A stretch of 64,000 nt of DNA from positions 1 to 64,000 of the IMG/VR virus record IMGVR_UViG_3300037067_020797; one strand, 5' to 3'. A program made the position numbers and the translations under genes. The notes below the pieces were generated by a model. That model was given only the letters and a program-made list of their open reading frames with translations, searched no databases and had not been told where the DNA came from. Of this stretch, positions 30,075-57,664 are shown piece by piece (the first letter of the stretch is position 1; each line of letters opens with the position of its first letter). This DNA is from a virus.

Positions 30075-31021
30075 ACAATTTCAAGTGCTAAGGAGGTTCC
30101 TTTTCGAGGGCCTAATGCAGTGACTTTAAGATTTTTCCATTCAGGATCACCGCCAGCTTTTTTCTCTTCTATATTAAGCTCTTTGGTATTTGCGTAATTA
30201 AATACAGATAAGTCCGGAGTGTATATTCTCGAATTGTAAATTGTAATGTGATGCTTCGTAGTGCCTTTAACTTTGCGCGCCGCGATAACTCGTACGACCC
30301 CAGGGCGGTATTCGAATAAGTTTTGAGCAATGAGCTCGTCCGCCCCGTAACGCTCCGACTTAATTTTGACGAGTAGAGATTTTTCATTTTCATGCAGTAT
30401 ATCAAATTTAAGATCTTCTGGATATTCACGAATTACTGGTTCTATATTATCAAAATCTTTCATAATAGCTTCTGTAAGATCCAATAACGACATCTCACAT
30501 AATTCTATACGAGATTTTCCCGGATAATCATAAAAAGGATATTGTTGAATTTTTAGTAAATAATTAAGTAATCGAGGAATAGGTATTTTTACAAAATTAT
30601 ATTTATTTGCAACCCATTCATTTAATTCAGACAGTAGCGCCATTAACTTGGTGCCGGATAATAATAACTTTTGTCGATGTTGTTTGTTCATCAGTGCAAG
30701 TGCTATAGCATCATCTATACTAACATCAAATACAGGACGATACACATAATTTGGATACCAATCTGGATTTTGTACGATAAAATTATATACTTGAGATGCA
30801 ACAGACATCATTGAATTTCGTTGGTCTTGCTTCAAAAGTCTTGGAATACCAAAGGTCACTATATTTTTAGAAGAAATAATATGGTGTTCTGGAATTCCTG
30901 GTTCTGTGGATATGGTCTGATTGTCTTCTTTTAGATGAATACCAATTCCGGCATCACCTGGTTGTAATATATATTGCGAACCAGACATAAGTTCGCGTAC
31001 ATCGAATAAAAACAGTTTCAT
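30047..31021 (-). CDS. hypothetical protein (operonic with the ClpA/C-like gene)
   Basis: 324 aa. Its start overlaps the stop of the unfoldase gene. Confidence 0.35.
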   Translation of the reverse strand: MKLFLFDVRELMSGSQYILQPGDAGIGIHLKEDNQTISTEPGIPEHHIISSKNIVTFGIPRLLKQDQRNSMMSVASQVYNFIVQNPDWYPNYVYRPVFDVSIDDAIALALMNKQHRQKLLLSGTKLMALLSELNEWVANKYNFVKIPIPRLLNYLLKIQQYPFYDYPGKSRIELCEMSLLDLTEAIMKDFDNIEPVIREYPEDLKFDILHENEKSLLVKIKSERYGADELIAQNLFEYRPGVVRVIAARKVKGTTKHHITIYNSRIYTPDLSVFNYANTKELNIEEKKAGGDPEWKNLKVTALGPRKGTSLALEIVWKHTCITS

Positions 31022-33204
31022 TTATTCTCCTGCTCTTTTACTACCACTTGTGGCGCTACTATAATTTTGTCCTCTGCCGTTATTACATCAAACGCTTCTA
31101 TAGCGGGATCTTCTATCAAGAAGTCAGCTATGGCAGATTCAATCTTATCTTGCACGAGACGTCTTAAAGGACGTGCACCAAATTCCTTTGAATATCCGTT
31201 CTTTATAAAATATTCTTCAGCTTCTGGGCTTAGTATTACTCGTACGCTCATTTGTTTTAAATATATCTTTAAAATACCTCGAACAGCTTCTGTTGTTAAA
31301 TCATTATAATGAACAGTTTCATCTATTCGATTTAGAAATTCAGGACGAAACTGTGCTTTTAATGCAGCACTTCGTTTTAGATCTTTCGTTGCTTTCTCAT
31401 TTATATCGGAAAACCCTAATGTGCCTTTGGAAGCTTCTATCGTTCCAATATTAGAAGTCATTAATATAATAGTATTTTTAAAATCAACTGTTTTTCCTCG
31501 CCCATCAGTTAAAACACCATCATCAAATACTTGAAGAAATACATTAAATATAGCTGGATGTGCTTTTTCAATCTCGTCAAGTAATATAATTGAATATGGT
31601 TTCTGACGTACTCGTTCTGTTAATTGACCACCTTCGTCATAACCAATGTAACCAGGAGGAGCTCCAATAATCTTTGCAATAGAGTGTTGCTCAGAAAGCT
31701 CACTCATATCCACTCGTATTAAAGCATCCTCTGTATCAAATAAACATTTAGCCAGCTGTTTTGCAGTTTCTGTTTTACCGACGCCTGTGGGCCCAAGCAA
31801 TAGAGCTGTAAATGGTTTTCTAATATTTTTCACACCTGTACGTGCTCTCTTGACAGCTTTTACCAATGTAGTTAATGCTTCTTCCTGCCCAATAACAACT
31901 TTATTAAGATCGGCTTCTAATAATTTTAAACGATCACGTTCAGACTGACCAATAGACGTCATCGGTATACCAGTCATAGTAGATACAACTTTACGTACGG
32001 TTTCTTCAGTAACTTTATCAGAAGATGCTAAATGTGCAACACTTCCGGCCTCATCAAAAATATCAATTGCTTTATCCGGCAAATATCTATCAGTTATGAA
32101 GCGATCACTTAAATCCGCAATCATTTTAGTTAGACCTGTATCATACTTAACTTTATGATAATCTTCATATAAACCTGAAATTTTATCCAGGATATCAATC
32201 GTCTCTTTTATTGTTGGAGGTTCTACATGTATACGCTGAAAACGTCTTTCCAGTGCAGGATCCCTTTCAATGTGTTTACGATAGTCATCAAATGTTGTTG
32301 CACCAATGCATTGAATATCACCGCGAGCTAATGCTGGTTTTAAAATATTAGCGGCATCTCCTGTACCCTCAGGACCACCAGATCCAACTAATGTATGAAC
32401 TTCATCAATAAATACGATTACGTCATGATTTTTTACAAGTTCATCGATAATAGCCTTTAAACGTTCTTCGAACTGGCCTCGCAATTTTGTACCTGCTACA
32501 ACCGAAGCCATGTTCAAGGATACTATTCTTTTGCCCATTAATGACTCTACAACCTCGCCCTTAGCGATTTTAATCGCTAACCCCTCTACTATAGCGCTTT
32601 TACCAACTCCAGGCTCTCCGACGAGTATAGGGTTGTTTTTCTTACGTCGACCTAAAATCTCGGTTATACGATTAATTTCTTTTAACCTGTTAACTACAGG
32701 ATCAAGTTTTCCTTCTGACGCTAGTTTTGTTAAATCTATGGAAAACGCATCCAATGCCGGTGTTCCACCTTCTGTTTCAGCGTGTTTTGGGGTTTGTACT
32801 TCTGGTGCTGTTGCAGTACCAAGAGGATTAAATCCAAATCGTTCTAATAAAATACTTGCAGTACTTTCACGTTGGGCTGCTAATGCCAGTAATAAATCCT
32901 TACTATCTGCCTGATCTATTTGCCGTATTTGTAAAAGAGCTTGAGCCACCGGTTTTGATAACGGTATACTTCCTTCTACAGCTACTGATGCGGAATTATG
33001 TGTAATTACTTTTCTTAAAGCTATTGATAATGAAGCTATAGACAAATGCTTTGTTAATAAATTATAGCCAGCTGTCTTTAACTGAATAATTGCAATCAGT
33101 ATATGCTCACTTTCAATAGAAGGATTTCCGGCATCTATGGCAACCCGACGTGCAAGATGTAAAACATTGGTTATATCTTCTGAATATGGATTCGATTGAT
33201 CCAT
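31018..33204 (-). CDS. ClpA/ClpC-type AAA+ unfoldase (two nucleotide-binding domains, Clp_N repeats, ClpP-docking loop)
   Basis: Clp N-domain-like repeats at the N-terminus. D1 Walker A GEPGVGKSAIVEGLA. D2 Walker A LLLGPTGVGKTETAKQLA. D2 segment SKGTLGFSD...FRPEFLNRIDE aligns with the ClpA IGL-loop region RKSIGLIHQD...FTPEFRNRLD. Confidence 0.75.
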   Translation of the reverse strand: MDQSNPYSEDITNVLHLARRVAIDAGNPSIESEHILIAIIQLKTAGYNLLTKHLSIASLSIALRKVITHNSASVAVEGSIPLSKPVAQALLQIRQIDQADSKDLLLALAAQRESTASILLERFGFNPLGTATAPEVQTPKHAETEGGTPALDAFSIDLTKLASEGKLDPVVNRLKEINRITEILGRRKKNNPILVGEPGVGKSAIVEGLAIKIAKGEVVESLMGKRIVSLNMASVVAGTKLRGQFEERLKAIIDELVKNHDVIVFIDEVHTLVGSGGPEGTGDAANILKPALARGDIQCIGATTFDDYRKHIERDPALERRFQRIHVEPPTIKETIDILDKISGLYEDYHKVKYDTGLTKMIADLSDRFITDRYLPDKAIDIFDEAGSVAHLASSDKVTEETVRKVVSTMTGIPMTSIGQSERDRLKLLEADLNKVVIGQEEALTTLVKAVKRARTGVKNIRKPFTALLLGPTGVGKTETAKQLAKCLFDTEDALIRVDMSELSEQHSIAKIIGAPPGYIGYDEGGQLTERVRQKPYSIILLDEIEKAHPAIFNVFLQVFDDGVLTDGRGKTVDFKNTIILMTSNIGTIEASKGTLGFSDINEKATKDLKRSAALKAQFRPEFLNRIDETVHYNDLTTEAVRGILKIYLKQMSVRVILSPEAEEYFIKNGYSKEFGARPLRRLVQDKIESAIADFLIEDPAIEAFDVITAEDKIIVAPQVVVKEQENK

Positions 33205-35907: not shown

Positions 35908-35912
35908 ATACC

Positions 35913-36894: not shown

Positions 36895-36904
36895 AGATTA
36901 AAAA

Positions 36905-36935
36905 ATAAAAAGGCGGTTTTTAAGCCGCCTTAAAA
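36905..36935 (-). terminator. intrinsic terminator after the Ro60 gene (AGGCGG-loop-CCGCCT, T-run on the minus strand)
   Basis: 6-bp GC stem. On the minus strand it is followed by TTTTTATTTTTT. Confidence 0.55.
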
Positions 36936-36936
36936 A

Positions 36937-42176: not shown

Positions 42177-42462
42177 TTATTAGTGGTGCCGTTCTTATAT
42201 TTAAACGTTGTAAATAAGCATCTTGAATGCTATCAACACGGCATTGCTCAGAATAATTTTCTTTTTGAGTATGCTCTAAAATCTCAATTCGTTTTTTTAA
42301 ACTATCCGACACTTGACACATGATAACTAAACTGTCAGATTTTTCTTGATTACTTTTTTCAATATCTTCAATAGCTATTGCATTTGCAGCATGTCCCAAG
42401 CCTAAACTAAAAAGTAATATAAATATGAATACAACAAATATTATATTAAAATATTCATTCAT
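42163..42462 (-). CDS. small secreted or membrane protein
   Basis: N-terminal hydrophobic signal-like segment. Confidence 0.3.
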   Translation of the reverse strand: MNEYFNIIFVVFIFILLFSLGLGHAANAIAIEDIEKSNQEKSDSLVIMCQVSDSLKKRIEILEHTQKENYSEQCRVDSIQDAYLQRLNIRTAPLINGVQ

Positions 42463-43159: not shown

Positions 43160-44035
43160 TTAAAAGTTGCCGTCGGCTACCTGAAAAACAACGATATTAA
43201 GATCATTCCTATACATTCGTATCATCTGATCTCTATCATCCAAAGCAAATAAAACCGAAAATTTTCCAGCTATATTGGCATCATATAACTCACGTTTCAC
43301 TATACAATCCTTTCGAAAATCCTTAGTCGTACGCATATATAATGCATCGTAAGTTATGTTATATTTCTTAAGCCAACGTTCAGTATGAGGTCTAAATTGT
43401 TCTTCTCTTCCTGACATTAGTATTATACGAAGATCTTTGCCATTTTTCAAGTACATTGATTTCATAGCTTCTAATGTTTGAGCTACCGGAATAGATACTG
43501 CATCATCCTCACATTTAACCGTTTCAAATGGGCCTCGATTTGTAAATAATGCCAGTGTACCATCAAGATCACAAATAATGGCGAAAGGCAGAGTGGAATC
43601 TGTAGCTATTATAGGCTGTCGCTTTACACCTGGAAGAAATCTCACAAAGCTCCGAACAACCTTTTCACCAACGTGCCCTTCGCCAACTTTACGCTGTGAA
43701 TCCCGATATACACATTCCTCTACTGAGACATCTGTGAAATCTTGAACTATGTATTCAGCATCACAATCTTTCGCAAATTGAACTAAAGCATCAAATGTCT
43801 TTGGAATGAGATTAGTATCATCACTAATTACATCTATTCCGGACTGTAATAAACTTGTGATATTCTCATCCCTTAATTTACGTATAAAGTCTTCGCTTTT
43901 CCCTGGATAAGTTTTCCGTAAAGCATCACGATTTACAATACATGTACCAGGATGACTTGTAACATATTCTTTTGCCCACGTGGATTTACCTGAACCAGGT
44001 AATCCACGACAAATAATAAATTTAGATTTCGCCAT
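43160..44035 (-). CDS. pnk: polynucleotide 5'-kinase / 3'-phosphatase (T4 Pnkp-like)
   Basis: N-terminal P-loop kinase IICRGLPGSGKSTWAKEY. C-terminal HAD phosphatase motif ICDLDGTLALF (DxDGT). About 291 aa, like T4 Pnkp. Confidence 0.7.
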   Translation of the reverse strand: MAKSKFIICRGLPGSGKSTWAKEYVTSHPGTCIVNRDALRKTYPGKSEDFIRKLRDENITSLLQSGIDVISDDTNLIPKTFDALVQFAKDCDAEYIVQDFTDVSVEECVYRDSQRKVGEGHVGEKVVRSFVRFLPGVKRQPIIATDSTLPFAIICDLDGTLALFTNRGPFETVKCEDDAVSIPVAQTLEAMKSMYLKNGKDLRIILMSGREEQFRPHTERWLKKYNITYDALYMRTTKDFRKDCIVKRELYDANIAGKFSVLFALDDRDQMIRMYRNDLNIVVFQVADGNF

Positions 44036-44285: not shown

Positions 44286-44922
44286 CGATTAAGTGCCACC
44301 AATTGCCTACAGGTGATTTTCCAAGAACGATTGGATCCTTCTTTCTTTCGACTTCTCTTGCTACGCTTTCTTTTACGATTAATATAATTTCAGCTTCATC
44401 AGAGTCAACCCATAACTTACCCCAGGCAGTCCTAAACTTACTTATTTCTTCAAGACCTTCGGTTGGTATTGTTGAAATGTAACTATTTATCGGAACTCGA
44501 CAAAGTTTATATTTAGCCAAAAGATCATTAATGGCAGCTTCTGTTACGACAGGCCAGGGAGAAAGAATTTCTGGACATTTGCGAAATCTTTTTCTTGCTT
44601 TAAGATAAAGTAGTGCTAATTTTTCCTCGTCAAAATCTAATTTATTCTTCTTTATTATCTTTATTCTGGCATTTACTACACTGATAGCTTTATCCAAATT
44701 TTCCAAATATAATAAAGGAATATTTGGCTGTATTAATTGTTTTACAACATCTACAGGGTTACTATCAATACGTTTATCCATTTGATCCTCGAATGCGGGG
44801 TTAACAGCAAAGGTAGAGCCAAAAGTACCCCATCTTGATCCCATAATAAAAGAATTCCTTCGCCTGGATAATTTTTTAATACCAGTAATAAATTTTTTAG
44901 TAAATCTGACTAAATTATTCAT
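44236..44922 (-). CDS. hypothetical protein
   Basis: 228 aa. Confidence 0.35.
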   Translation of the reverse strand: MNNLVRFTKKFITGIKKLSRRRNSFIMGSRWGTFGSTFAVNPAFEDQMDKRIDSNPVDVVKQLIQPNIPLLYLENLDKAISVVNARIKIIKKNKLDFDEEKLALLYLKARKRFRKCPEILSPWPVVTEAAINDLLAKYKLCRVPINSYISTIPTEGLEEISKFRTAWGKLWVDSDEAEIILIVKESVAREVERKKDPIVLGKSPVGNWWHLIGAWDEEVKYVSDILYR

Positions 44923-44931
44923 AGATTTCTC

Positions 44932-45171
44932 CTAACTTGTTTTAGATTTTCCTTTATTTACTATTGTTCCTAAGGGAAAAGGTTGCGTGTATTCTATAAA
45001 TTTATAACAATCGGGGCATATGCCTACAGAATAAGTTTCACCGCCGACGGTGATCATAATATCTTTGTCATGGGGGCATAATAATTGAGCTAACCAGTTA
45101 GGCCAGAAATTTATTAATATCCCATGTGATCGTCTCCACCAGTGAGTAGGACGAATATAAGTTTCAAACAT
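44932..45171 (-). CDS. small Cys-containing protein
   Basis: 79 aa. C..HD...CPDC pattern. Confidence 0.3.
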   Translation of the reverse strand: MFETYIRPTHWWRRSHGILINFWPNWLAQLLCPHDKDIMITVGGETYSVGICPDCYKFIEYTQPFPLGTIVNKGKSKTS

Positions 45172-45305
45172 TTTATCCTTTCAAATAATTGAGGGGTCTT
45201 GCGACCCCCCGATAGTATAATATTACACGTCATGTTACCAGCGTGCCGGCCTACAGTACAATCGAGAAAACAGCCGGTCGTGAAAGGATGTTTAGTTCGA
45301 TTGTT

Positions 45306-46091
45306 TCACAGTAAGTTATTTTTATGTAATATTTGTTTTTGAATTTGTACTAACTGATTATCCAGCCAGTCATAATCAAACTTTTCCGGCAATATGCTAT
45401 CTCTGTTAGCTTCATCCAGATCTTGTTCATAGCATTTAAATAGGTACTGAAATTCCTCTAAGGTTATTTGTCCTAATTTTACTTCCATACATATTTTTTG
45501 TTGTACTTCTGGAAGTCTTACAGGAAAATATCCTTCGAGCAATGCTTCTTTACCGGCATACATTAAACGTATACAATGTGATGCATTGCGAGGAGAGTAA
45601 TTTAAACGTTCGAGCTCTTCCTTTCGTCGGGCTCCTAAATCACGAGAAGATTCACCAAGTGCTTTGCGATATTCTGCGTAAGAGTACCCATGTATAACGT
45701 TATATATCTGTTTGGTAATAAAGGCTTCTTTATGTAAAAGAATATAATACTTAAATTGTTCGTTGCCGTCAAATAAGACGCAGTCTTCTGGGCTGAACAA
45801 CATTTCTAACATCTGTGTATTACCAGCTGCAGCTAAATGACAAAATTTACGAACATGCCAATAAACTTTATCTTCTGGTTCTGGAAATACTTTTTGTTCA
45901 AAGATTTTCATACCAAAATAATACCTTAAATCATCTGGCATCACTACACCACGTATGTCAAGATCCGATTCGGGGGTAGCTAATCCATAGGCATGAGAGC
46001 CAATTTTGCATTCATATAATTTAATTAAATTCATATTAATAAAACCACGTATGTGTCCATTGACCAATAATCTTAATATGTGATAATACAA
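45306..46091 (-). CDS. minimal nucleotidyltransferase (Pol-beta superfamily)
   Basis: GSHAYGLATPESDLDIRGV fits the GS-x9-DxD nucleotidyltransferase signature. Sits in the RNA-repair neighbourhood. Confidence 0.5.
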   Translation of the reverse strand: MYYHILRLLVNGHIRGFINMNLIKLYECKIGSHAYGLATPESDLDIRGVVMPDDLRYYFGMKIFEQKVFPEPEDKVYWHVRKFCHLAAAGNTQMLEMLFSPEDCVLFDGNEQFKYYILLHKEAFITKQIYNVIHGYSYAEYRKALGESSRDLGARRKEELERLNYSPRNASHCIRLMYAGKEALLEGYFPVRLPEVQQKICMEVKLGQITLEEFQYLFKCYEQDLDEANRDSILPEKFDYDWLDNQLVQIQKQILHKNNLL

Positions 46092-46195
46092 TTAATATAA
46101 AAACATACCAAGATACTACTTCAGTAATACACATTATAAGTCCAACTACGATAAAAATAATTGAAAACAAATTTATTTCGGTTATTCTCCAACAT

Positions 46196-46624
46196 TTATT
46201 CATCTAATACTCCTGCCTGAATTAGTGTCCTTCTAAGATTAGTAGAGACATATTCATGTGCATTTTCTTTAGTTACATATTTGAAAGCATCTGCTTCTGG
46301 AAATGGTTTTCGATTAGGAAGCTTTACCATTTCCGTGCATTTAAGTGTATCGATATTTGGAAGTTTATCTAACGTAATTTTAAAGAGATAGAGATCCTTT
46401 GCAGGTAGATACGTAAACTGCCCAAGATCTTGAATTACAGCTATATCTGTAGGTATAGTAAAACCAGTTTCCTCTTTAACCTCGCGAAGGCATGCATCTA
46501 AAAAATCTTCCGCTACTTCAACTCCACCTTTGGGTATATCCCAAATCTTTTGTCCTGTCGCATGACAGACTAAAAAACTGGTGCCATCTGTTAAAATGGC
46601 ACCCGCTGATATCTTACGAGGCAT
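46196..46624 (-). CDS. Nudix hydrolase
   Basis: Nudix box GGVEVAEDFLDACLREVKEETGF. Confidence 0.65.
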   Translation of the reverse strand: MPRKISAGAILTDGTSFLVCHATGQKIWDIPKGGVEVAEDFLDACLREVKEETGFTIPTDIAVIQDLGQFTYLPAKDLYLFKITLDKLPNIDTLKCTEMVKLPNRKPFPEADAFKYVTKENAHEYVSTNLRRTLIQAGVLDE

Positions 46625-46696
46625 TTAGTTTTCCTTTCTCTGCTAAACGCCGTAATCGTCTTTTTTGTTTCCTTAATTTGCGAGCCTGAATAGCAC

Positions 46697-47449
46697 GTGT
46701 ATGTATTTTATTTGCCTCAGCTCTTAGAATTTGACCTTTTAAGAAGTTCATGGATTCATGTCCTTATGCATTTAGGTGTTTTTATGATTTGCATTTTTGC
46801 AGATATTTTTGTATATTATAAAATGACTAAAATAATAGAACATAAAATTAAAGAAGCTTATAATAACGGACATTCCTATAAAAGCATAATGCATGAGTTT
46901 AACGTTAGTTATGGCACGATTTGTGGTATTATTGGAAAATTTAAACTTGCCGGTCGAAAACTTAAAATAAAACTAATAGGAAAAAATAAAGCAAAATGTA
47001 GCAGATGTCATAAAATTCGACCATTAAGTAGATTTAGTGTAGGGCATTCTACTAAAAAGTATTATTATAGCTTTTGTAATACCTGCCATCAGGGGAAAAG
47101 AACAATTTATTATAATACTAATATAGAAAGTCGTTTAAAATTAATATATACTCACCTTAAGAGCAAAGCTAAAAAACTAAATCTTAAATTCTTTATTTCA
47201 TTTGAGGAATTTAAAAATATTTATAATAAACAAAATAATAAATGTTATTATACTGGATTTACAATGACAACGAAATTAGGAAATGGAGCTTCAAAATTTG
47301 CAATTTCAGTTGATCAAATTATACCCGGCAAAGGTTATACAAAAGATAATATTGTATTTTGTACGCGTTTTGCAAATTCCATAAAAAGTAATTTATCCAA
47401 ACAAGAATTAAGGAAATGGATAAAAGCTATTTATCAACATATTAATTAA
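46697..47449 (+). CDS. zinc-finger / HNH-like endonuclease domain protein (possible homing endonuclease)
   Basis: Two CxxC/CxxH pairs (CSRCHK, CNTCHQ). C-terminal VDQIIPGKGYTKDNIVFCTRFANSIKS resembles a degenerate HNH core. Confidence 0.35.
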   Translation: MYVFYLPQLLEFDLLRSSWIHVLMHLGVFMICIFADIFVYYKMTKIIEHKIKEAYNNGHSYKSIMHEFNVSYGTICGIIGKFKLAGRKLKIKLIGKNKAKCSRCHKIRPLSRFSVGHSTKKYYYSFCNTCHQGKRTIYYNTNIESRLKLIYTHLKSKAKKLNLKFFISFEEFKNIYNKQNNKCYYTGFTMTTKLGNGASKFAISVDQIIPGKGYTKDNIVFCTRFANSIKSNLSKQELRKWIKAIYQHIN

Positions 47450-48525
47450 GCAGGAAGAACCTGGTGCAGTAGTTTTTTATAAGCATCGTTATCTAATTCT
47501 CGATTATCGAGCATCGTAAATACAAATCCCGATCGACTCGTTTTACCGTAAGCAGATATGATCTTAGCTGCTGCTTCCTTTCTTGGAAGTGTTCGCACTT
47601 CGTCAGCAAAAAATTTCATATGGTCAAGGATCTTATTAACTTCTTTATTCGCATCGGCTAATTTACTTATATCTCCACGTGCAATAACTGCACATTCGTA
47701 ATCGTAGGTATTGGCTACATAATCGTAAAATTCTTGATAAGACGGCCGACCACATAACACGTACGCTTCAAGTAAATTATTGATACTTAAGTCACTTTTG
47801 AATGCATGTATCGCCAGATATTTTTGGCCTTTAACTTTTTTGATGTGTTGATCTTTATCATAGTATAAACAAACGCCCTCCTTACCATCAAATGCTCTAA
47901 CTTGGGATAATAAATCTTCAACGTCCTCAAACCTAAGCGTCGGTGGGCGCGGAATGCCCAGGTTATCTGCCATGACATCAAGTGTATTTTGAGAGAGCAG
48001 ACTATAATCATCATGAACAATGGCACCGACAAGGAAAAGTTCCGGATCCGGTCCCAGGTCGAGAACGATTCGATTTTTGGGGCTGTACCATTCGAAGATT
48101 CTTGTGAAGTTGTCATTAGGTATTTCGAAAGCTCTCCGATATTTCTTTTTAAGCAGTTCAATCTCGTCTGCATTATCAAATATACTAACATCAAATGTAC
48201 CTCGGGTACGTATGATTAATTTATCCTTAAATGGTGAAACTATAAGAGTACTTCCATCTATTTTTTCAACTGCCGTTGTTCCTATTAAACTATCAGGAGC
48301 CGGTATAATATTATCCTTTTCATCCCAGTTAAAAAACTTAGGAAAACTTGGGCTTACAAGATAACCATCTTCAGTCCATATTGATGATCTGAAGATTAAA
48401 TTTTCTTTAGTCCAAGTGCATCCCATGTGCTGCGGATGCACAAGAACTAAAGGTTCTCCATACTGGGTAGAGGTCTTCCGCAAGAACTCTTCAGAAAGCG
48501 ATTCTAATGGGTAAGATAGTTTCAT
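47446..48525 (-). CDS. ATP-dependent RNA ligase, T4 Rnl1-like (putative)
   Basis: Nucleotidyltransferase motif I VEKIDGSTLIV (KxDG). Size 359 aa. Same region as Pnkp. Confidence 0.5.
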   Translation of the reverse strand: MKLSYPLESLSEEFLRKTSTQYGEPLVLVHPQHMGCTWTKENLIFRSSIWTEDGYLVSPSFPKFFNWDEKDNIIPAPDSLIGTTAVEKIDGSTLIVSPFKDKLIIRTRGTFDVSIFDNADEIELLKKKYRRAFEIPNDNFTRIFEWYSPKNRIVLDLGPDPELFLVGAIVHDDYSLLSQNTLDVMADNLGIPRPPTLRFEDVEDLLSQVRAFDGKEGVCLYYDKDQHIKKVKGQKYLAIHAFKSDLSINNLLEAYVLCGRPSYQEFYDYVANTYDYECAVIARGDISKLADANKEVNKILDHMKFFADEVRTLPRKEAAAKIISAYGKTSRSGFVFTMLDNRELDNDAYKKLLHQVLPA

Positions 48526-48528
48526 TTT

Positions 48529-48780
48529 TTATTCGGTCAGTGAGGTAGTTGAAATAATCTCATTATTTATATGTGCTTTAATGGTTATTGTGCGCCGACC
48601 TGTAGAATTATCAATAGTGCAAACCATTCCAGGAACATTTTCAAATTGATGAAGTATTTCCTCTGTTGACATTTTATGCATTATTCTTGAAAATTTAAAA
48701 GCCGCCCATGTAATATAAGGATGTTTTATCCAAGATATTAATTTTTTAGGATTAATTAATGTAATTTTATGCTGATTCAC
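48529..48780 (-). CDS. small hypothetical protein
   Basis: 83 aa. Confidence 0.3.
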   Translation of the reverse strand: MNQHKITLINPKKLISWIKHPYITWAAFKFSRIMHKMSTEEILHQFENVPGMVCTIDNSTGRRTITIKAHINNEIISTTSLTE

Positions 48781-48911
48781 ATTTACTCCTTTGATTTTAA
48801 TAATTCGGCTGACTTACGCCAGCCGTTTATACCATATGAAACACAAATCGATGCAGGTTATTTAGTCGGAATTATGTAACCGAACTATAGCAGGGTACTC
48901 TGCATTTATCC

Positions 48912-50609
48912 CTAACCAGCTTCGTATACCGATGCTTGATTTATTACAATTATTTTCTTGCCTTTAAATTTCAATGTTGCACCCTCTTCTACTTCGTCAC
49001 ATTGAAAATCTTTATAGGTATTTTTAACCCAGTTAAATCCACGAATAGAGCATTCATGTGCGGAATAAATGGTGTTATTATTAAAAGCAAGGGAATCTAA
49101 AGGCACTGCATACTTATTATTTGTATCGTGATAAAGAGTTTGTGTGCCCTCAAATATATAAGTTACAAATTGTCCAGATGATCTTTCATATATAAATAAC
49201 CATCGTTTAGAAACATTATCATAATGTAAACCATAATTAACCGGTTTCATTATTTCAGTAAGTTCTATAAATTGTCCATTAATTTCAACGACAGTTTTGT
49301 GATCATACATATTTATAACTATATAGCCGCCTAACGAATCAACTTCAAATAAGTTATTAATAGCAACATGAGTATCAGTGTAAAAAGCACTGCCCTTTTG
49401 ACTATATACACATGAGGAAAAACCTAATCCCGGAGTAATGTAATAAAATGTATTATTACCCATAATAACTATACGACTATTATGTAACTTAGGTATCGTG
49501 GCTGCACCTATATGAATATTATCTGCAGTCACATAAAGTAACGTACCATCACTTAAATAGTAAGTTTTCTTGTTAAAATAAATACCGGTCTCTTGACCAG
49601 TAGGAATATGCACGATAGTGTTATTTTCACTTATATATAGCTCTTCAGATAACATTTCTTTACATTCGGTACTTGAAAATAACCTGACTATTTTTATCTC
49701 GCCGGCCGTTACTTTAACTGGTTTGATTGGCTTTAAAGATGCAGTATAACATACTGGGCATTTATCATACTGTCCATAATAATCGTTTTTATGTTTACTA
49801 CACCAATTGAGATTTGATGTAAATTCTGTAAGACTATTAGTTAACACGGTTCTTATACCAGTATCATATATACGATGTAGGTCCTCTAAAAATCCTGGAT
49901 GCATATATTCCCACGGATCTATGATCTTAGGAATAATGGCTTTAACTTTTGGATTTAATACTGATAGACCTCTCTTCATCCTTTCGATAAGATCTAAATC
50001 AGGTTTAATATTTCCACCAAATGGATGAAGCCTGGTTAGACTTTTAAATGCAAGTATAGCAAACGCGTACGCGTCTGTACCTGCATTAAAATTACATCCT
50101 TTTAATTTAGGGTCTTTAAATGCGTCCATTGCAACAGTACATGGATATGAACCGACGCTCCAGCTGTCTGTATCTAATATATAAGGGTGAAAATTTTCAG
50201 TAAACACAACATTAGAATCATTTAGATCACCGATAAAAATATTTTGCGAATGAAGTTCTAATAGCGCATTACGTAAATCTATTAGCATTTGTAATATATT
50301 GTGAATTTTAATTCCATAAGTTGCAAGAGTTTTACGATTGGTTAAAGCGCGAAACTCTTCAATCTCATTTAATTTTTCCATAGTATAGCCTATGAAATTT
50401 CCGGCAGCATCATGCAGTATATCTTTAGGACCTATAGCTATACCAGGCAACATTGTTTGAAGAAGGATTTCAATTTTTTTGTACTTTGAATCTAAATCTA
50501 CTACTGGTTTAAATATTTTCATTATTTTGCCAGTACCTTTGTGAATATAGATCTGGCCCTCCCCACCTTCTGCGATAGGGGTACCTAAAGTTCTTTTATC
50601 GAGTTTCAT
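48912..50609 (-). CDS. eukaryotic-like Ser/Thr protein kinase domain protein with a C-terminal beta-rich domain
   Basis: Gly-rich loop GGEGQIY. Lys in KIMKIF. Catalytic-loop-like HSQNIFIGDLNDSNVVF. DTD in the DFG position. Confidence 0.5.
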   Translation of the reverse strand: MKLDKRTLGTPIAEGGEGQIYIHKGTGKIMKIFKPVVDLDSKYKKIEILLQTMLPGIAIGPKDILHDAAGNFIGYTMEKLNEIEEFRALTNRKTLATYGIKIHNILQMLIDLRNALLELHSQNIFIGDLNDSNVVFTENFHPYILDTDSWSVGSYPCTVAMDAFKDPKLKGCNFNAGTDAYAFAILAFKSLTRLHPFGGNIKPDLDLIERMKRGLSVLNPKVKAIIPKIIDPWEYMHPGFLEDLHRIYDTGIRTVLTNSLTEFTSNLNWCSKHKNDYYGQYDKCPVCYTASLKPIKPVKVTAGEIKIVRLFSSTECKEMLSEELYISENNTIVHIPTGQETGIYFNKKTYYLSDGTLLYVTADNIHIGAATIPKLHNSRIVIMGNNTFYYITPGLGFSSCVYSQKGSAFYTDTHVAINNLFEVDSLGGYIVINMYDHKTVVEINGQFIELTEIMKPVNYGLHYDNVSKRWLFIYERSSGQFVTYIFEGTQTLYHDTNNKYAVPLDSLAFNNNTIYSAHECSIRGFNWVKNTYKDFQCDEVEEGATLKFKGKKIIVINQASVYEAG

Positions 50610-50644
50610 TTGCTTTTTTAATTAAATTTTAGTATATTTATATA

Positions 50645-51346
50645 ATGCCACATTTTAAAAATCTTCTAAATAAACAATTTGGACGACTTACAGTTATTGA
50701 AATAACCGATAAACGTACTCCTACTGGCAAAGTAATATGGAAATGTAAATGTTCTTGTAATAAAATTCATGAAGTTAATTCTAATAGTTTATTGTGTGGA
50801 TCCACTAAATCTTGTGGATGCCTACAAAAAGAATGGGCCGTTATTAATGGAAAAACTCGTTTACATGATGTAACTGGTCAAACTATTAACGGTATTAAAA
50901 TTATTCGCATGTCTGACAAACGATCAGGTAGAAATGCATATTGTTTTGCTTTATGCCCAGTTTGTGGTAATGAATGGGAAGTACAAGCAAGTCTTTTAAG
51001 AACGAGGCATTCCACACAATGCAAAACTTGTAGTTTCCGAGCCATGTCATCAAAAACAGCTGAAAGGCTATTCAACAAATTAGAAGACAAATTGGATCTT
51101 AAAATTATTCGCGAATATCGAATTAACAATCGATTTTTTGATGGCTACATACCAGAATTAAAATTATTAATAGAGTCTGATGGTAGTTACTGGCATTCTA
51201 AACCCGAAAGTGTAGAAATCGATGCCGAAAAAGATAAGTTAGCCAAAGAAGCGGGTCTACAATTAATTCGAGTAACTAATAATAATGAAAAAGATCATCC
51301 CGCTGCAATAGAAAAAATTTACAATGCAATTGTTATATCATCTTGA
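50645..51346 (+). CDS. zinc-ribbon repeat protein with a C-terminal DUF559/Vsr-like PD-(D/E)xK endonuclease domain
   Basis: Three Cys clusters at the N-terminus. C-terminal YIPELKLLIESDGSYWHS...LIRVTN resembles the DUF559 endonuclease core. Confidence 0.4.
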   Translation: MPHFKNLLNKQFGRLTVIEITDKRTPTGKVIWKCKCSCNKIHEVNSNSLLCGSTKSCGCLQKEWAVINGKTRLHDVTGQTINGIKIIRMSDKRSGRNAYCFALCPVCGNEWEVQASLLRTRHSTQCKTCSFRAMSSKTAERLFNKLEDKLDLKIIREYRINNRFFDGYIPELKLLIESDGSYWHSKPESVEIDAEKDKLAKEAGLQLIRVTNNNEKDHPAAIEKIYNAIVISS

Positions 51347-52002
51347 AAATAATTGTAATTACGATTTATGAAAAGTTTAACCGGCACTTCTTTACCCTTA
51401 AGCAGCAATTGTGCAAACTCTTCTTGACGTTCCTTTGGCATATTAAATAAAAAGCGAAGTCCATCAGTTGCTATGCCTATGTTTTTATATTCAGATTTTG
51501 GATACGTTAACGTGGTCACAGTTATCTTATCTTTATAGACGCTAAACGCTACATGTGGGATATAATTATAACCATAGAACTCTACAAATCTTATGCCCAC
51601 ACCAAGTTCTTTATAAGTAATAGTATTATCTTGATGTACTTCGATAATGAACCCATCACCTACATAATCTACCTTAAAATGGTCGTCTCTTTCCTTAACT
51701 ATTAATGTGGTAAATAAAAGATAATCACGAATAATTTCTATACCCATCCTATCTAATTCTTCGGGATAACGGTCTAAATCAAATGAATTAAAAACATCCT
51801 GGCTTACATCAGGTATATCAATTGGCATTCCAGATTGTACGCGGGTTCGAAACATAAGTTCAGCCAATTGTGCTCCAACTTCCGCATGTGGACTTGATCC
51901 ACATCCGTCAGCTACAAACTTATAATGTTCATCGATATAGCCAGCATCTTGTTTATTAAGGCCCGAATCTAAGTGTGATTTTCCGATTTTGCATATCAGC
52001 AT
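51319..52002 (-). CDS. PP2C-like protein phosphatase (tentative)
   Basis: FVADGCGSSPHAE resembles PP2C motif 1 (DGHGG). Later VGDGFII resembles the DG motif. 227 aa. Lies near the kinase. Confidence 0.3.
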   Translation of the reverse strand: MLICKIGKSHLDSGLNKQDAGYIDEHYKFVADGCGSSPHAEVGAQLAELMFRTRVQSGMPIDIPDVSQDVFNSFDLDRYPEELDRMGIEIIRDYLLFTTLIVKERDDHFKVDYVGDGFIIEVHQDNTITYKELGVGIRFVEFYGYNYIPHVAFSVYKDKITVTTLTYPKSEYKNIGIATDGLRFLFNMPKERQEEFAQLLLKGKEVPVKLFINRNYNYFQDDITIAL

Positions 52003-52089
52003 TATCCAACTCCTCTAATTCTTGTTCTGTATAAAACATCGTGCCTTCTTTACATTTACTACAGCGACCCTGTGATTCACAAAGTTCAC

Positions 52090-52356
52090 CTAACGGTGGT
52101 GCTGTACAGCAGATTGAATATCTTTTTGGTTCCATCGTTTTTCAAATTTAAGTGTTAATATAATTATTACGTTTGTTAAATTATGTTGTGGTGTTCCGGG
52201 ACTACATGCTATATGAGGCCCTGGATGGCCTTTTTCTCTGGTACAATACCAATATCCTGCGGGAGAAGCTTTACAATACATTATTGCAGCGCATTGTCTA
52301 GGATCTGCAGGAGGATTCCATTCCTGACAATAAGGGCAATTATCTGTTGTAGACAT
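52090..52356 (-). CDS. small Cys-rich protein
   Basis: 88 aa with CPYC...C..C...C...C. Confidence 0.3.
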   Translation of the reverse strand: MSTTDNCPYCQEWNPPADPRQCAAIMYCKASPAGYWYCTREKGHPGPHIACSPGTPQHNLTNVIIILTLKFEKRWNQKDIQSAVQHHR

Positions 52357-52376
52357 ATACTACCTTTATAAGTAAT

Positions 52377-52509
52377 AACCGCTGCAGATGTCTTTCGGTA
52401 TATTTATACCTTACTCATTTCTATTGTGTAAATATACACATTTTCGGTTTTGAGGGCGCAAGAACCCGTGACATCCTACCGACAAATAGATTTCTCTACA
52501 CAGCGGTTA
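52377..52509. repeat. 10-bp inverted repeat ATAACCGCTG / CAGCGGTTAT flanking a 113-bp AT-rich hairpin-containing segment
   Basis: Perfect terminal inverted repeats in a non-coding gap between two minus-strand genes. Confidence 0.35.
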
Positions 52510-52518
52510 TTTTGTTAA

Positions 52519-53178
52519 TTATACAAAAAATGCATCTTGATCCACCACTACAGATTTAGAGCTGGCAATCACTGATTTCGAAAGGCAGTCAAAACCTATT
52601 CTCAAATCATGTGCTGAACTCTTTACCGTTAGCAGATTTTTGAATCCAAGTTCCTTAGCAATATCATCCGCAAGAGAACCGAATGATATAAACGCAGTTG
52701 TAATCTCACGCTTATTTAATTCTCCAATAGCGGTTTTAGCCTTTGCTGCTGAGTTTTTAGATACAGTATCCTCTCCGTCAGAAAATATTGCAAATACCGC
52801 TTTTACTCGCATGCCTTGCGCCTTTAAGTGATCTACATATTGAACAAGTTTATCGACACCTTCACAAATGACATCGTACAAAGCTGTTCCACCGTAAGCA
52901 GAATAAGTTGTATCAAAATCCGAAACTTTCTTATATCCACCGACTGTTATTTGATCATTAAAGGTAGCCCTAGCTATTAATATTTTAGATTCCTCTTTAG
53001 ATGCAATCATTGCATCTTTGAAATCTTTTAAGCACTCTGCCATGTCTTTTTGATATTGATCCATAGAACCCGATGCATCAATACCTATAAACTGAAGATG
53101 TACGTCTTCACTATCGATTTCTTCGATAGAAGTATTTTCGATCTCGATTTGATCAAGACCATAGATTTCATCGCTCAT
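52519..53178 (-). CDS. vWA domain protein
   Basis: MIDAS motif FIGIDASGSMD near the N-terminus. Confidence 0.55.
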   Translation of the reverse strand: MSDEIYGLDQIEIENTSIEEIDSEDVHLQFIGIDASGSMDQYQKDMAECLKDFKDAMIASKEESKILIARATFNDQITVGGYKKVSDFDTTYSAYGGTALYDVICEGVDKLVQYVDHLKAQGMRVKAVFAIFSDGEDTVSKNSAAKAKTAIGELNKREITTAFISFGSLADDIAKELGFKNLLTVKSSAHDLRIGFDCLSKSVIASSKSVVVDQDAFFV

Positions 53179-54056
53179 AAAGAAAAGTTCTCCGTTGTTA
53201 CCAAGTTAACCTGATACTTTGATTTGAACTCTTTAAATGCTGCTTCGGTCGCTGCTTCGAACCCTGGAATGTTGCTCATACAGTCTTCCAAGATAAATAC
53301 GCGTTTGGTAATTTCCGGCTTTGCTTTATAATAATCTAGCATTTGGGAAATCGATTCCAAAACGCAATGAGACTTTGCTTCGCCGGCGATTACTACGCGA
53401 TCAAATGATTCCAGTTTATTAAGAAAACTCATGTTAATATAATTCTTGGGATCCCATTCAGGTTTAATTATACCATACATTTCGGTATCAGGATCGAGCC
53501 CTTTTACCAAACGTATCGACAGAGCCTTTCGAGCAACGCTGTGATAATAAACCATGTTGCTGACTTGTGGATCTAAAGCGCAACCTTGAGTTCCTTGCAG
53601 ACAATGATATGGCCAAATTACAAGAACTTTTTTATTGGATTTGCTCAAAGCTTCCACATAATCCCGAGAATGTTGCGGCCGAATTACCGGCCGATACTTA
53701 CCCGAATCAAGATCTGCTAAAGAAATGGCTGTGAATGGAGCTGGATTTTGACCGTTTTCATCTTCCCACCAACATGGGTGAAAAATTTGAAATGGGTTAT
53801 GAGTATCGATTGATACTGCAATCTGTGTAATCTTACCCATATTATCATAAATCCATTTGGTTACTCGTTTTACATCCTCATCGGCCCCTGGTACACCTAA
53901 TGCACCCGTCGGCATAAAATCTTGCTGTTCATCAATAAGTATAACTAATACGCTCTGCAGATCTTTTGCTGCAGATGTTAGTTGCTCGTTATTGGCAAGA
54001 ACAAGTAATTCATGTTGTTTCTTGCCGCTGACGATCTCATTATAGGATGTTTTCAT
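53175..54056 (-). CDS. isochorismatase-family hydrolase (nicotinamidase-like)
   Basis: VLVILIDEQQDFMP matches the isochorismatase/PncA D-x-Q-x-DF start motif. Candidate catalytic Cys in AGEAKSHCV. Confidence 0.5.
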   Translation of the reverse strand: MKTSYNEIVSGKKQHELLVLANNEQLTSAAKDLQSVLVILIDEQQDFMPTGALGVPGADEDVKRVTKWIYDNMGKITQIAVSIDTHNPFQIFHPCWWEDENGQNPAPFTAISLADLDSGKYRPVIRPQHSRDYVEALSKSNKKVLVIWPYHCLQGTQGCALDPQVSNMVYYHSVARKALSIRLVKGLDPDTEMYGIIKPEWDPKNYINMSFLNKLESFDRVVIAGEAKSHCVLESISQMLDYYKAKPEITKRVFILEDCMSNIPGFEAATEAAFKEFKSKYQVNLVTTENFSL

Positions 54057-54058
54057 CC

Positions 54059-54301
54059 TTATCCTTTCGGTAAAATTGTAACAATTATATTTGGTACATT
54101 TGTAGCTAATTTCTTAATGCCCATAAATGAATAACTAACATTTTTAACCTCGAATACTCCTGAAATATCTATATCACTTTGGGTTATAATAATTTGCTCA
54201 CCGATTCTTGGTACAGCTGGAACGTCGGCTTCAAAAGTTTTAACTTCTAATTCATATAAAGCATCGGTCTTACAGGGCCGATAAACAAAATTTACTGTCA
54301 C
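54059..54301 (-). CDS. small hypothetical protein
   Basis: 80 aa. Confidence 0.3.
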   Translation of the reverse strand: MTVNFVYRPCKTDALYELEVKTFEADVPAVPRIGEQIIITQSDIDISGVFEVKNVSYSFMGIKKLATNVPNIIVTILPKG

Positions 54302-54305
54302 TGTT

Positions 54306-54566
54306 TTATATCCAGTATTTCTTAGTCGCTATGCCGCAAATAATCCAAATAAATTCCAAAATCAACAGATGCACACCAATTAAAAATATGGCCACCGTTC
54401 CAAAGAACCATGCCGCTACTTTATACAGCGGTACATCAGCTGTTTTAAACAAACAGAAATATACTACAAACGCTACTATAGCAGTTTCCCAGATAGTCGT
54501 AATTGTTGCTAATATTACAAATACTATCAATAAAGCGATAACGATTAACACTTTGCTTGAAGTCAT
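54306..54566 (-). CDS. small membrane protein
   Basis: Three hydrophobic helices. An antisense ORF at 54331..54570 is an alternative, less likely reading. Confidence 0.3.
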   Translation of the reverse strand: MTSSKVLIVIALLIVFVILATITTIWETAIVAFVVYFCLFKTADVPLYKVAAWFFGTVAIFLIGVHLLILEFIWIICGIATKKYWI

Positions 54567-54708
54567 TTAGAACCTCCATTTGATATGTAGCCGAGAAGAA
54601 AACCAATAACAATGAAAAGCACACCAACAACAATAAATGGTAATATAAAACGAAGTACCATTATAATTATTACAATAACAAAGATACAAATTAAAGCTAT
54701 TAAAAGTT

Positions 54709-55014
54709 TCATATAAAATACCTTTCTATGTCGGCCCAATTTGTAAATCGTATAGCACGTGAACTAATATATGCCTGAGATTTTGGTGGGCTATTAGTTA
54801 CTATTACAGATTTAACTGTAATATAATTAAGCATTGGATGATGAGTTTCTATTAACCAATCTTCAATTTCTTTTTGTTTAGTTGGATCAGAAATATAAAT
54901 TGCTATCCTCTTATATTGGTAGTTAACCATCCTATCGATGAAATCAAATACTAATTCAGAAGATAGCACATCTTCACAATCAATTGTTATAAATGTATCT
55001 TCACTCATTGACAA
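54709..55014 (-). CDS. hypothetical protein
   Basis: 101 aa. Confidence 0.3.
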   Translation of the reverse strand: MSMSEDTFITIDCEDVLSSELVFDFIDRMVNYQYKRIAIYISDPTKQKEIEDWLIETHHPMLNYITVKSVIVTNSPPKSQAYISSRAIRFTNWADIERYFI

Positions 55015-55231
55015 TCTTTGCTTCTTGCAGTTCCATTACTTTGGAAAGCATTTGTTGATTGGTATTCTGTACAGCTAAAATCCAAACAGCTATGTCTTGA
55101 GTTTTATGTGACTTTATAAATTCTTCTAATTCTTTTTGAACTTCGGTTACCATGGCTTGCTGTTGAAAATGTGCTACAGTATTAAATGCGCGTTGAATTG
55201 CCACGTTATAGATATTTTCAACGTATTTCAT
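55001..55231 (-). CDS. hypothetical protein
   Basis: 76 aa. Its start lies inside the 3' end of the ClpP-like C-terminal reading frame. Confidence 0.3.
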   Translation of the reverse strand: MKYVENIYNVAIQRAFNTVAHFQQQAMVTEVQKELEEFIKSHKTQDIAVWILAVQNTNQQMLSKVMELQEAKIVNE

Positions 55232-55833
55232 CTACCAGCCCGTAATCTAAACAAGTCTTAGCATCAAACCAAAGATCATGATCAAGTATCTCATCTATTT
55301 TTTCTGCTGGGATTTTGGTATATTTAGTATAAATCGACTTAATCGTTTCCATCAATTTATCACTATTTATCATATCATCTTTTAACTCACGATATTTGCC
55401 AGCTCGCTGAAAACAATTGATGTATTAACATGAAAGCATTTGCACGGATAATACGTTTTTTGCCTACAACAGTAAGAAATGTAGCGGCGCTGGCACAACA
55501 ACCATCAACTACAGTTACAACCGGTACTTTTGATCCTATAATTTCATCCATTGCTGATAGTCCTGCAAAAATGCTGCCACCATAACTATTTACATGAAGA
55601 AAAATGCAGGCAGGATCGCGTTCTTGAATAGAGGCCTGTACAAGTAAATCATTATTTAATTCACGTAAACGTCGATTTAATTGTAAGATCTCAGAACGGT
55701 AAATTTCTGAATAGAAAAATATACGATTAGACACCATCTCTACAAATGATGGCTCTTTAAATATTTCCCCTGCACGTTTTTTTTCAACTTCTTCACGAGG
55801 GGCCTCTTCACCCCAAAAATCTTTTTTATTCAT
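55218..55833 (-). pseudogene. ClpP-like serine peptidase, interrupted by a +1 frameshift (N-terminal 148 aa in frame A, C-terminal about 57 aa in frame B)
   Basis: Frame A (55387..55833): VNSYGGSIFAGLSAMDEI and GCCASAATF match the ClpP catalytic-Ser region, and LIHQL carries the His. Frame A ends in TGA at 55387-89. The +1 frame across this point reads QRAGKYRELKDDMINSDKLMETIKSIYTKYTKIPAEKIDEILDHDLWFDAKTCLDYGLVDEIR, a ClpP C-terminus. Confidence 0.5.
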
Positions 55834-56938
55834 ATTTTAATAAGAACTCCGGATTAATATATTTAAATTTGAGTCTTCCTAATGTTCCTATCCGAGTAGG
55901 TTTCATTGCTACATAAACTACACCTTCGGCAGGAGTATCGTTATCATACTTTAATTCACTAACATATGTAAATTTTTCTTCCACATGTTTACGAATCGGC
56001 CCAAAATAAATTTCTTTTACCATTGGAATTTGATAAGTGAAGCAATAAGCTTGAAACCGAGAAGGAGACAAGAATTCTGATATATCGCCATTATACATAT
56101 CGAACGCAAAGAAGGTTATTTCTGTAAGTCCCATTTTATTTTTCTGAATACCGGGTCCACAGATTTCTCCTTGAATTGCAAATCGCTTAATATTATAAGT
56201 TGTTGCTATCTCTTTGACTTTATTAAGCAAATTATATTTATATGCAATTTGCCAATAAATATTTGTATTCTTAGGTTTTTCTCCTTCAACCCATTTATTT
56301 GCGCCTTCGTCGGATTCTTTAACTTCCCAATTACGACTACATACACCAACATGATCGGTTTCCGCATCATAAAATACCGTAATACTCATACCATCCATTT
56401 TTACACTGACGGTAAAATAATCGTCTAAATAAGGCTCGATGCTGCGGTTGTAATTTTGATATCGTTCAGCATCAGATTTTTCACACCAACCAGGGTAATT
56501 ACCGGCTGATAAAGGTGGAATACTTTCTGCAGGAGGTTCATATTTTATGATTTCAAAATATTCTGCAACATCATAATTTATAACATTGATTTTTTCTACA
56601 GGACCTTTTTTTAATTCATTTTCTGTTATCCATTGAAGAAGTTCAGTAGTAACATTTAAAAGAATACCTTGTGATACTTCACCACGGAGTCTAATAGTTC
56701 TGATACGAGATGTGCCATCAGCCTTAGCTCGAGGTTTAAGAAATTCGAATTCTGGTCTTGATATTTTCACCTTTGAATCAATAGGCACATATACCACAAA
56801 ATCACCAGGTTTACGAGCATGTATTTTATCAACACATCGCCAGCCTATTTCTTCGAATTCTATTAAATCTAATGCATCTGCATTTGGATGTTTAGTAACT
56901 GATTTAACAGTTACTATTGGAACTGAAAAAGTACTCAT
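55826..56938 (-). CDS. ATP-dependent polynucleotide ligase (KxDG nucleotidyltransferase, RNA-ligase-like)
   Basis: Motif I FTVSVKMDGMSITVFYD. 370 aa. Second ligase in the window. Confidence 0.45.
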   Translation of the reverse strand: MSTFSVPIVTVKSVTKHPNADALDLIEFEEIGWRCVDKIHARKPGDFVVYVPIDSKVKISRPEFEFLKPRAKADGTSRIRTIRLRGEVSQGILLNVTTELLQWITENELKKGPVEKINVINYDVAEYFEIIKYEPPAESIPPLSAGNYPGWCEKSDAERYQNYNRSIEPYLDDYFTVSVKMDGMSITVFYDAETDHVGVCSRNWEVKESDEGANKWVEGEKPKNTNIYWQIAYKYNLLNKVKEIATTYNIKRFAIQGEICGPGIQKNKMGLTEITFFAFDMYNGDISEFLSPSRFQAYCFTYQIPMVKEIYFGPIRKHVEEKFTYVSELKYDNDTPAEGVVYVAMKPTRIGTLGRLKFKYINPEFLLKYE

Positions 56939-57258
56939 GTAAATTTACTAAAATTTATTTCGTTTGAACCTTCGTTTACAGATTTAGCTATTGCTATAAC
57001 TACCGAGTATAATACTTGTGTTGTTTTTCCCTTTGTAGGATCGGAAATAAGCACAGCTTGTTCTTTAGTATCATCTTTTTTAAATTTTAAATAAGCACAA
57101 CCAGTATCTGCAATTAATTTATCGTCTGCACAAAATTCAGCAGAAGGAAAAAAATATGTTATAATATTAAATAAATCATCTGCAGATAAATCCATTGGAT
57201 CTATTTTAAATTTATCACATATCCAAGCATCAAGTTCTTTATCTGCCATCCAATTCAC
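56935..57258 (-). CDS. hypothetical protein
   Basis: 107 aa. Confidence 0.3.
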   Translation of the reverse strand: MNWMADKELDAWICDKFKIDPMDLSADDLFNIITYFFPSAEFCADDKLIADTGCAYLKFKKDDTKEQAVLISDPTKGKTTQVLYSVVIAIAKSVNEGSNEINFSKFT

Positions 57259-57664
57259 CTAATTTACTATATAAATAATCAAAGAACCGGCCAGTCCCAT
57301 TTACAAAAGCTCCGTGAATCGCTGCTGCTCCAGTGCCAAGACCGTACGCGCTGATCTTAATAGGCCGTCCATCCTTCTTCGCCTTTTCAATCGCTTCATC
57401 AACGACTTTTTTGAATAACTCGAAGTCTTTATCGGTATCTTGAAAGTAAGCATCTCTACCGGTTCCACGAGTTTTCTTAGTAGGGATGCCGATGGCATTG
57501 GATAAACCACGGCAGACCGCTTGGGTCGACGTGGGTATAAAGAATTTACCTTTTTCGTCGGGGCTGGCATCTTGAATATTTTCGCCGAATAAGTAAATGT
57601 GCTTCGTGTCGCTCTTGACTTCATCACGTGTCCAATAATGATTAACTGATTTTAACATATACAT
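57239..57664 (-). CDS. hypothetical protein (possibly NAD/ADP-ribose-pathway related)
   Basis: 141 aa. Weak resemblance of GRDAYFQD to the YbiA/NADAR-type DAYWG motif. Not reliable. Confidence 0.3.
   Translation of the reverse strand: MYMLKSVNHYWTRDEVKSDTKHIYLFGENIQDASPDEKGKFFIPTSTQAVCRGLSNAIGIPTKKTRGTGRDAYFQDTDKDFELFKKVVDEAIEKAKKDGRPIKISAYGLGTGAAAIHGAFVNGTGRFFDYLYSKLGELDGR

Follow-up and report, generated by a model that had tools for sequence, protein, structure and literature searches.

Introduction

The proteolytic subunit of the ATP-dependent Clp proteases is ClpP, which belongs to MEROPS family S14. ClpA, ClpC and ClpX are docked onto ClpP by a tripeptide loop, and this loop is absent from ClpB. 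For +1 frameshifting, the bacterial release factor gene prfB (RF2) provides a well-defined reference: it involves a slippery CUU-U at the stop codon and an upstream Shine-Dalgarno stimulator, and the arrangement is conserved across bacteria. Stand-alone ClpP and ClpA/ClpX genes have been reported in large phage genomes, where an action on host proteins or a role in assembly was proposed, and jumbo phages have been reported to encode ClpP, ClpA, ClpX and ClpS (PMC7824862, PMC6102473).

Here, we analyzed a clpP-like gene that is split over two reading frames in a stretch of viral DNA of 64,000 nucleotides (IMG/VR record IMGVR_UViG_3300037067_020797, positions 1 to 64,000), which is called the window throughout this paper. 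An earlier note, which was prepared from the sequence alone, had recognized a ClpP homologue at this locus and had suggested a pseudogene, a sequencing error or programmed frameshifting as possible reasons for the split. Our comparisons indicate that we are very probably dealing with a private, non-programmed lesion of an otherwise normal clpP gene.

Results

The two reading frames of the clpP-like gene

The clpP-like gene is located on the minus strand (55833 to 55218) and its coding sequence is distributed over two frames (Table 1). Translation of the locus confirmed the reading of the earlier note that an N-terminal frame with Ser and His signatures ends in TGA and that the C-terminus is encoded in the +1 frame. 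The N-terminal frame carries VNSYGGSIFAGL, GCCASAATF and LIHQ. It encodes the catalytic Ser115 (AGC, 55491-55489) and His138 (CAT, 55422-55420), and its product consists of 148 amino acids, which include three out-of-frame residues (QIS) at the end. The C-terminal frame ends with ...ILDHDLWFDAKTCLDYGLVDEIR and encodes the catalytic Asp187 (GAT, 55277-55275). Homology picks up again in this frame at GGC 55400-55398 (Gly146), and the two frames share an overlap of about 36 nt (55424-55387). In the window as written, Asp187 is located in another frame than Ser115 and His138. Since the open reading frame stops at 148 amino acids, there is no continuous ClpP polypeptide of about 200 residues from which the heptameric ring could be built, whereas the copy on an independently assembled contig (L005, described below) is continuous.

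Table 1. Position of the clpP-like gene, of its lesion and of the putative partner gene in the window
Feature	Position	Strand	Details	Basis
N-terminal frame, ClpP-like gene	55387..55833	-	ATG 55833, TGA 55389-55387	ORF list and translation
Lesion site	55398..55401	-	TGGC (vs TGGGGC, Trp145-Gly146)	DNA alignment to close relatives
C-terminal frame	55218..55424	-	+1 frame, open from 55424, stop 55220-55218	Translation
Putative ClpC/ClpA-type double-ring AAA+ unfoldase	31018..33204	-	728 aa	Pfam, PHROG, solved-structure match, motif scan

The assignment of the gene as a ClpP homologue was borne out by comparison with the Pfam family CLP_protease (PF00574), for which the gathering cut-off is 20.2 bits. 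The N-terminal piece matched profile positions 10-113 (49.8 bits, E 5e-13) and the C-terminal piece positions 121-178 (37 bits, E 4e-9). When the two pieces were joined, the match extended over positions 10-178 of the 182 profile positions (93.1 bits, E 2.6e-26), so that the joined sequence and each of the fragments alone score above the cut-off. To find adjoining halves of one CLP_protease domain in two frames is far beyond chance.

We also considered an alternative genetic code, in which TGA is read as a sense codon, but this option was rejected. The N-terminal frame would still meet a TAG nine codons past the TGA and, in addition, the other genes of the window form long open reading frames under the standard bacterial code.

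Two bases are missing relative to all relatives and to the same strain

The closest homologue of the ClpP-like protein (P0001, 203 aa, 91% identity) reads ...HQLFSASWGKYRELKDD... unbroken over the junction. It was found on four contigs (L001-L004), one of which is a 215-kb NCBI contig, and all four copies are intact. From the DNA alignment it can be seen that these four contigs carry TGGGGC where the window has TGGC, so that two G's of a four-G run are gone. As a consequence of this 2-bp loss, the codons downstream of the lesion fall in the +1 frame. The earlier note had proposed to inspect the reads over 55380-55395 and had named a single-base indel as the alternative to a true split. The actual lesion lies a few bases outside this interval and turned out to be a 2-base deletion (GG from TGGGGC) relative to every relative.

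Exact look-ups of the two neighbour proteins (the RNA ligase encoded at 55826-56938 and the product of a 76-aa open reading frame at 55001-55231) both led to one Logan contig, SRR18595300_866274 (L005, 5313 bp), which encodes an intact ClpP of 205 amino acids. When this contig was aligned with positions 59512-54202 of the window, we observed 0 mismatches and one 2-bp gap, which is located at 55400 in the G run. Putting GG back into the window gene yielded the L005 gene, nucleotide for nucleotide. Two additional contigs from the same sequencing run (L008, L009) cover positions 30101-38405 at 100% identity and positions 45742-54214 with 9 substitutions. All 9 substitutions lie within ~170 bp of the end of one contig and represent a strain branch. 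Taken together, the three SRR18595300 contigs cover 22.1 kb of the window and the clpP deletion is the only indel there.

For the related contigs L001 (96% identical over 18 kb) and L007 (99.4% identical over 22 kb), all other indels were in-frame or intergenic, and the source assembly is therefore not indel-noisy. The 148-aa product (P0122) is represented by one record among ~15 billion proteins. This record originates from a JGI/IMG contig of 64,631 bp, which is evidently the window's own; the contig index gave nothing when it was queried for exact copies of the product. Scanning for both alleles with the pattern CAGCGAGCTGGN{0,2}CAAATATCGTGAG gave 0 matches each in IMG/VR, the JGI metagenome contigs and the GTDB genomes. 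Evidently, the IMG/VR, JGI metagenome and GTDB sets that were scanned do not include the source contig, and the strain is otherwise absent from them.

Across positions 44900-64000 (e.g. 57500-61000, 51750-53000, 55200-55458), the window shows a mosaic identity to L001, in which zero-mismatch blocks alternate with stretches of 5-25% divergence. The clpP gene itself contains one of the mosaic boundaries, at a distance of 58 nt upstream from the deletion. The same mosaic is present in L005 and, because this contig is independent, the pattern is explained by recombination between phage lineages and not by an assembly chimera; a chimera at the boundary upstream of the lesion was ruled out on the same grounds. 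Moreover, a 660-bp segment (41526-42184) with two small open reading frames (139 aa, 80 aa) is present in the window and is missing from the 99.4%-identical L007. This segment is a small insertion/deletion polymorphism between strains.

The junction is conserved in the gene family

When ~5.8 billion clustered proteins were searched with the ClpP-like protein, 1512 homologues were recovered. Lengths were taken from the best 120 of these 1512 sequences, most of which comprise 196-222 amino acids; two have 172-175 residues. In IMG/VR loci recovered with the family profile, the junction is crossed in one frame in 80 of the 80 loci examined, and the Trp-Gly codons read TGGGGN in the 75 of them that have the standard W-G-K junction. 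A family alignment of 41 sequences indicated that S115, H138, W145, G146 and D187 are invariant. Comparison of the window with the L001 lineage yielded a dS of 0.46 and a dN of 0.014 for clpP (180 codons), which corresponds to a dN/dS of 0.031. The clpP-like gene is normally under strong purifying selection between lineages.

A second interrupted family member was observed on another contig (L028, positions 1501-2079, IMGVR_UViG_3300008517_000034). Here, the clpP homologue stops early at a TGA just past the catalytic-Asp motif (…HDLWFSG*), and another frame can be read into a GLVGEII-like C-terminus. This lesion is independent and concerns a different site within the same gene family.

A recent null allele or an error of the source contig

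Because an independent assembly of the same strain is identical but for two bases, the lesion is either extremely young or not biological at all. This narrows down the explanations listed in the earlier note. A recent null mutation and a sequencing or assembly error both remain, but an old, decaying pseudogene is excluded since the gene with restored GG is nucleotide-identical to the intact copy.

On balance, we lean towards a real, newly arisen null allele that originated from slippage in the G run and that at least some of the phage population carries. The otherwise clean assembly argues for this reading, and so does the fact that null alleles of accessory genes are frequent in phage populations. 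In either case, an ordinary and conserved gene for a ClpP-type serine peptidase, located in a jumbo-phage-like genome that is uncultivated, lacks GG from TGGGGC in this one contig. The deletion shifts the last 60 codons into the +1 frame and, as written, translation stops after 148 residues. Judged from its sequence, the truncated product, which keeps Ser115 and His138 and is devoid of Asp187 and of the C-terminal third of the fold, should be inactive.

The competing explanation is an assembly or sequencing artefact. The phage DNA would then read TGGGGC and clpP would be intact, the loss of the two G's being confined to the consensus sequence of the source contig. We consider this a possibility to be taken seriously, although we tend to doubt it. 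In its favour, a change in homopolymer length is all that separates the window from the independent assembly within 5.3 kb, and there is no other indel within 22 kb; with zero substitutions few real mutations are to be expected. The exact neighbour proteins are on record on a single contig of SRR18595300, so that this run may stem from the sample of the window itself or from a sister of it, with the intact allele dominating there. The strong constraint under which the gene otherwise stands points in the same direction. On the other hand, no other frame-breaking indel was detected in ~40 kb of comparisons despite the presence of 105 G/C runs of at least 4 bases in the window. These data point to an assembly of high accuracy, where consensus deletions of 2 bp are rare events, and a noisy long-read assembly with many homopolymer errors was ruled out on this basis. 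One argument weighs against slippage and sequencing error alike: the loss of 2 bp in a four-G run is not the commonest outcome of either process.

Programmed recoding at the junction is highly improbable

Programmed frameshifting, the third explanation put forward in the earlier note, was rejected. For full-length ClpP to result, either the ribosome would have to shift by +1 or -2 at the junction or transcription would have to slip there. The frame overlap, the UGA that closes the 0-frame three codons after the junction and modest local RNA structure downstream are compatible with this idea. However, the split is not conserved, since no break at the junction was seen in the same strain (L005) or in any of the 80 relatives examined. 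The downstream structure is an AU-rich hairpin pair (-15.6 kcal/mol, z -2.4, 5 of 200 shuffles as good). The intact alleles hold the identical sequence and the hairpin pair is therefore no frameshift-specific signal.

The search for a slippery sequence, which had been suggested in the earlier note, did not reveal a suitable site at the junction. The junction reads AGC UGG CAA, and tRNA-Trp cannot re-pair at +1 (GGC) or at -2 (GCU), although only the -2 shift from UGG onto GCU restores both Trp145 and Gly146. Neither UGG-C nor the UCG-U that precedes the UGA is slippery for +1. The only slippery motif, UUU-U, is located four codons upstream, and a shift at this motif would replace the conserved FSASW with FQRA. 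In a motif scan we did not find a Shine-Dalgarno-like element upstream of the junction, and a run of two G's is too short for the polymerase to slip. With this evidence at hand, we attribute to programmed recoding next to no probability.

An active split enzyme, in which the 148-aa N-fragment would assemble non-covalently with a 51-aa C-fragment that has its own start codon, is similarly implausible: an ATG-initiated open reading frame at 55373-55218 does cover the C-terminal helix-strand region with Asp187, but a motif scan detected nothing Shine-Dalgarno-like before its internal ATG (55373), residues 146-153 with the invariant G146, E150 and D153 would be missing, no such organization was seen among the relatives examined, and the fused gene in the identical strain leaves no time for selection of a split form.

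A further reading is that the TGGC allele is real and nevertheless yields a functional peptidase in the phage. For this, one would have to invoke either unconventional -2/+1 recoding at the residual GG, possibly with help from slipping of the phage's own fused beta/beta-prime RNA polymerase, or non-covalent assembly of the two fragments. We regard this as highly improbable.

The intact protein and its putative partner unfoldase

The repaired protein, which is identical with the 205-aa protein of L005, aligns end to end with solved bacterial ClpP chains. In this alignment S115 (GCCASAATF), H138 (LIHQ) and D187 (DHD) correspond to the Ser of GxxASMG, the His of IHQP and the Asp of DRD, respectively. 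For more narrowly defined classes, the scores stayed below the cut-offs. With TIGR00493, the equivalog model of cellular ClpP, we obtained 60.7 bits (cut-off 308.6), and the score with NF045542 (ClpP-related head maturation protease) was 99 bits (E 3e-28), which is below the cut-off of 120 for this family. The best PHROG match was phrog_94 (E 4e-39). The neighbours of clpP are genes for an RNA ligase, an NAD synthase, a DUF7831 protein, a PP2C phosphatase, a NUDIX protein, a second RNA ligase and a WGR-PARP protein. This is no head-module setting, and the only portal-like match in the window is weak and 46 kb away (7374-9344).

Megablast of positions 54000-58000 against GenBank phages gave no match. 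When the ClpP-like and ClpC-like proteins were used as queries for tblastn, the only relatives shared less than 60% identity, many of them were unannotated fragments, and they provided no taxonomic anchor.

The 728-aa protein listed in Table 1 contains a Walker A motif at residue 196 and a second one at residue 471, and it shows Pfam matches to AAA, AAA_lid_9, AAA_2, ClpB_D2-small and, weakly, Clp_N. It matched PHROG 4871 ('ATP-dependent protease') with an E of 1e-226, and its best solved match was Staphylococcus aureus ClpC (6em8, E 3e-179). The M-domain is lacking, as residues 407-466 of the 6em8 chain were unmatched in the alignment. For the ClpP-docking loop we searched for the tripeptide (I/L/V/A)G(F/L), and found LGF (residues 596-598) at the corresponding position. 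This LGF aligns to the AGF of ClpC and is located just after TSNIG (TSNVG in ClpC). From these sequence features, the 728-aa protein is likely the ATPase partner of the ClpP-like peptidase. We infer that the intact system would be an ATP-dependent protease of the ClpC-ClpP type encoded by the phage, and the presence of both genes suggests a complete phage-encoded Clp protease.

Other features of the window

Several additional genes were observed. An open reading frame of 2025 amino acids (23567-29644, plus strand) combines domains of two RNA polymerase subunits, namely domains 3 and 6 of Rpb2 (beta) and domains 1, 2 and 5 of Rpb1 (beta-prime). It represents a fused, compact RNA polymerase of the multisubunit type and is conserved on the related contig L007. 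On the minus strand, an 817-aa open reading frame (11991-14444) gave matches to the shoulder domain of the Major Vault Protein (E 2e-24) and to a vault repeat domain; such a module is eukaryote-type and unusual for a phage-like genome. Also on the minus strand, a MoxR-type AAA+ ATPase (bpMoxR, E 1e-47) is encoded directly upstream of a vWA-domain protein (19503-22216), which is the pairing of MoxR-vWA systems.

An RNA-repair-like gene set is distributed over four minus-strand loci (36937-38784, 43160-44035, 47446-48525, 55826-56938) and comprises Ro60/TROVE with vWA, a polynucleotide kinase-phosphatase, a T4 Rnl1-type RNA ligase and a second RNA ligase (PHA02142/RNA_ligase). A search of the window for tRNA genes was negative. 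The genes of a WGR-PARP protein and of an NAD synthase are found close together and near a 293-aa open reading frame without a Pfam match (61690-62898, 57652-58503 and 53175-54056, all on the minus strand). The WGR-PARP protein and the NAD synthase may form an NAD-consuming and NAD-regenerating pair.

Discussion

Private frameshift lesions are commonplace in metagenomic contigs, and there is nothing new in the split of clpP itself. Our analysis removes a candidate for programmed frameshifting and places the gene as an ordinary member of a large and well-conserved family of phage ClpP-like peptidases. If the deletion is real, the window would represent a jumbo phage variant in which clpP is naturally null and which has its own gene for a ClpC-like unfoldase. 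In that case the peptidase could be lost at least transiently, and the variant would be a natural knockout for the function of a phage-encoded Clp protease. For annotation, caution is advised because the 148-aa 'ClpP protease subunit' in IMG is a truncated product.

When the locus is compared with prfB (RF2), the likeness is one of geometry only, in that the 0-frame ends in UGA and the continuation is found in the +1 frame. None of the hallmarks of prfB (slippery CUU-U, Shine-Dalgarno stimulator, conservation) was found in the phage clpP.

With the Clp sets of jumbo phages such as Agrobacterium phage Atu_ph07 and the Rak2-like phages, the window shares the presence of Clp genes in a large phage-like genome; its own are ClpP-like and ClpC-like, and related contigs reach 215-219 kb. 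It differs from them in that there is no close isolated phage and in that the ClpP-like and ClpC-like proteins show less than 60% identity in tblastn.

The relation to cellular ClpP is evident from the PF00574 match, from the triad at the catalytic positions and from the ClpC-like unfoldase in the same genome. However, the phage protein scores far below the NCBIfam equivalog cut-offs and carries an N-terminal extension of ~35 residues with variable sequence. Moreover, its gene is phage-encoded and is interrupted in the window contig.

The best profile matches of the phage ClpP-like protein are those to the prohead proteases (NF045542, PHROG 94). In contrast to these enzymes, it stays below the NF045542 cut-off, and its gene is found among auxiliary genes and not beside portal or capsid genes. 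Prohead proteases need no AAA+ partner, whereas the phage genome described here encodes what appears to be a dedicated one.
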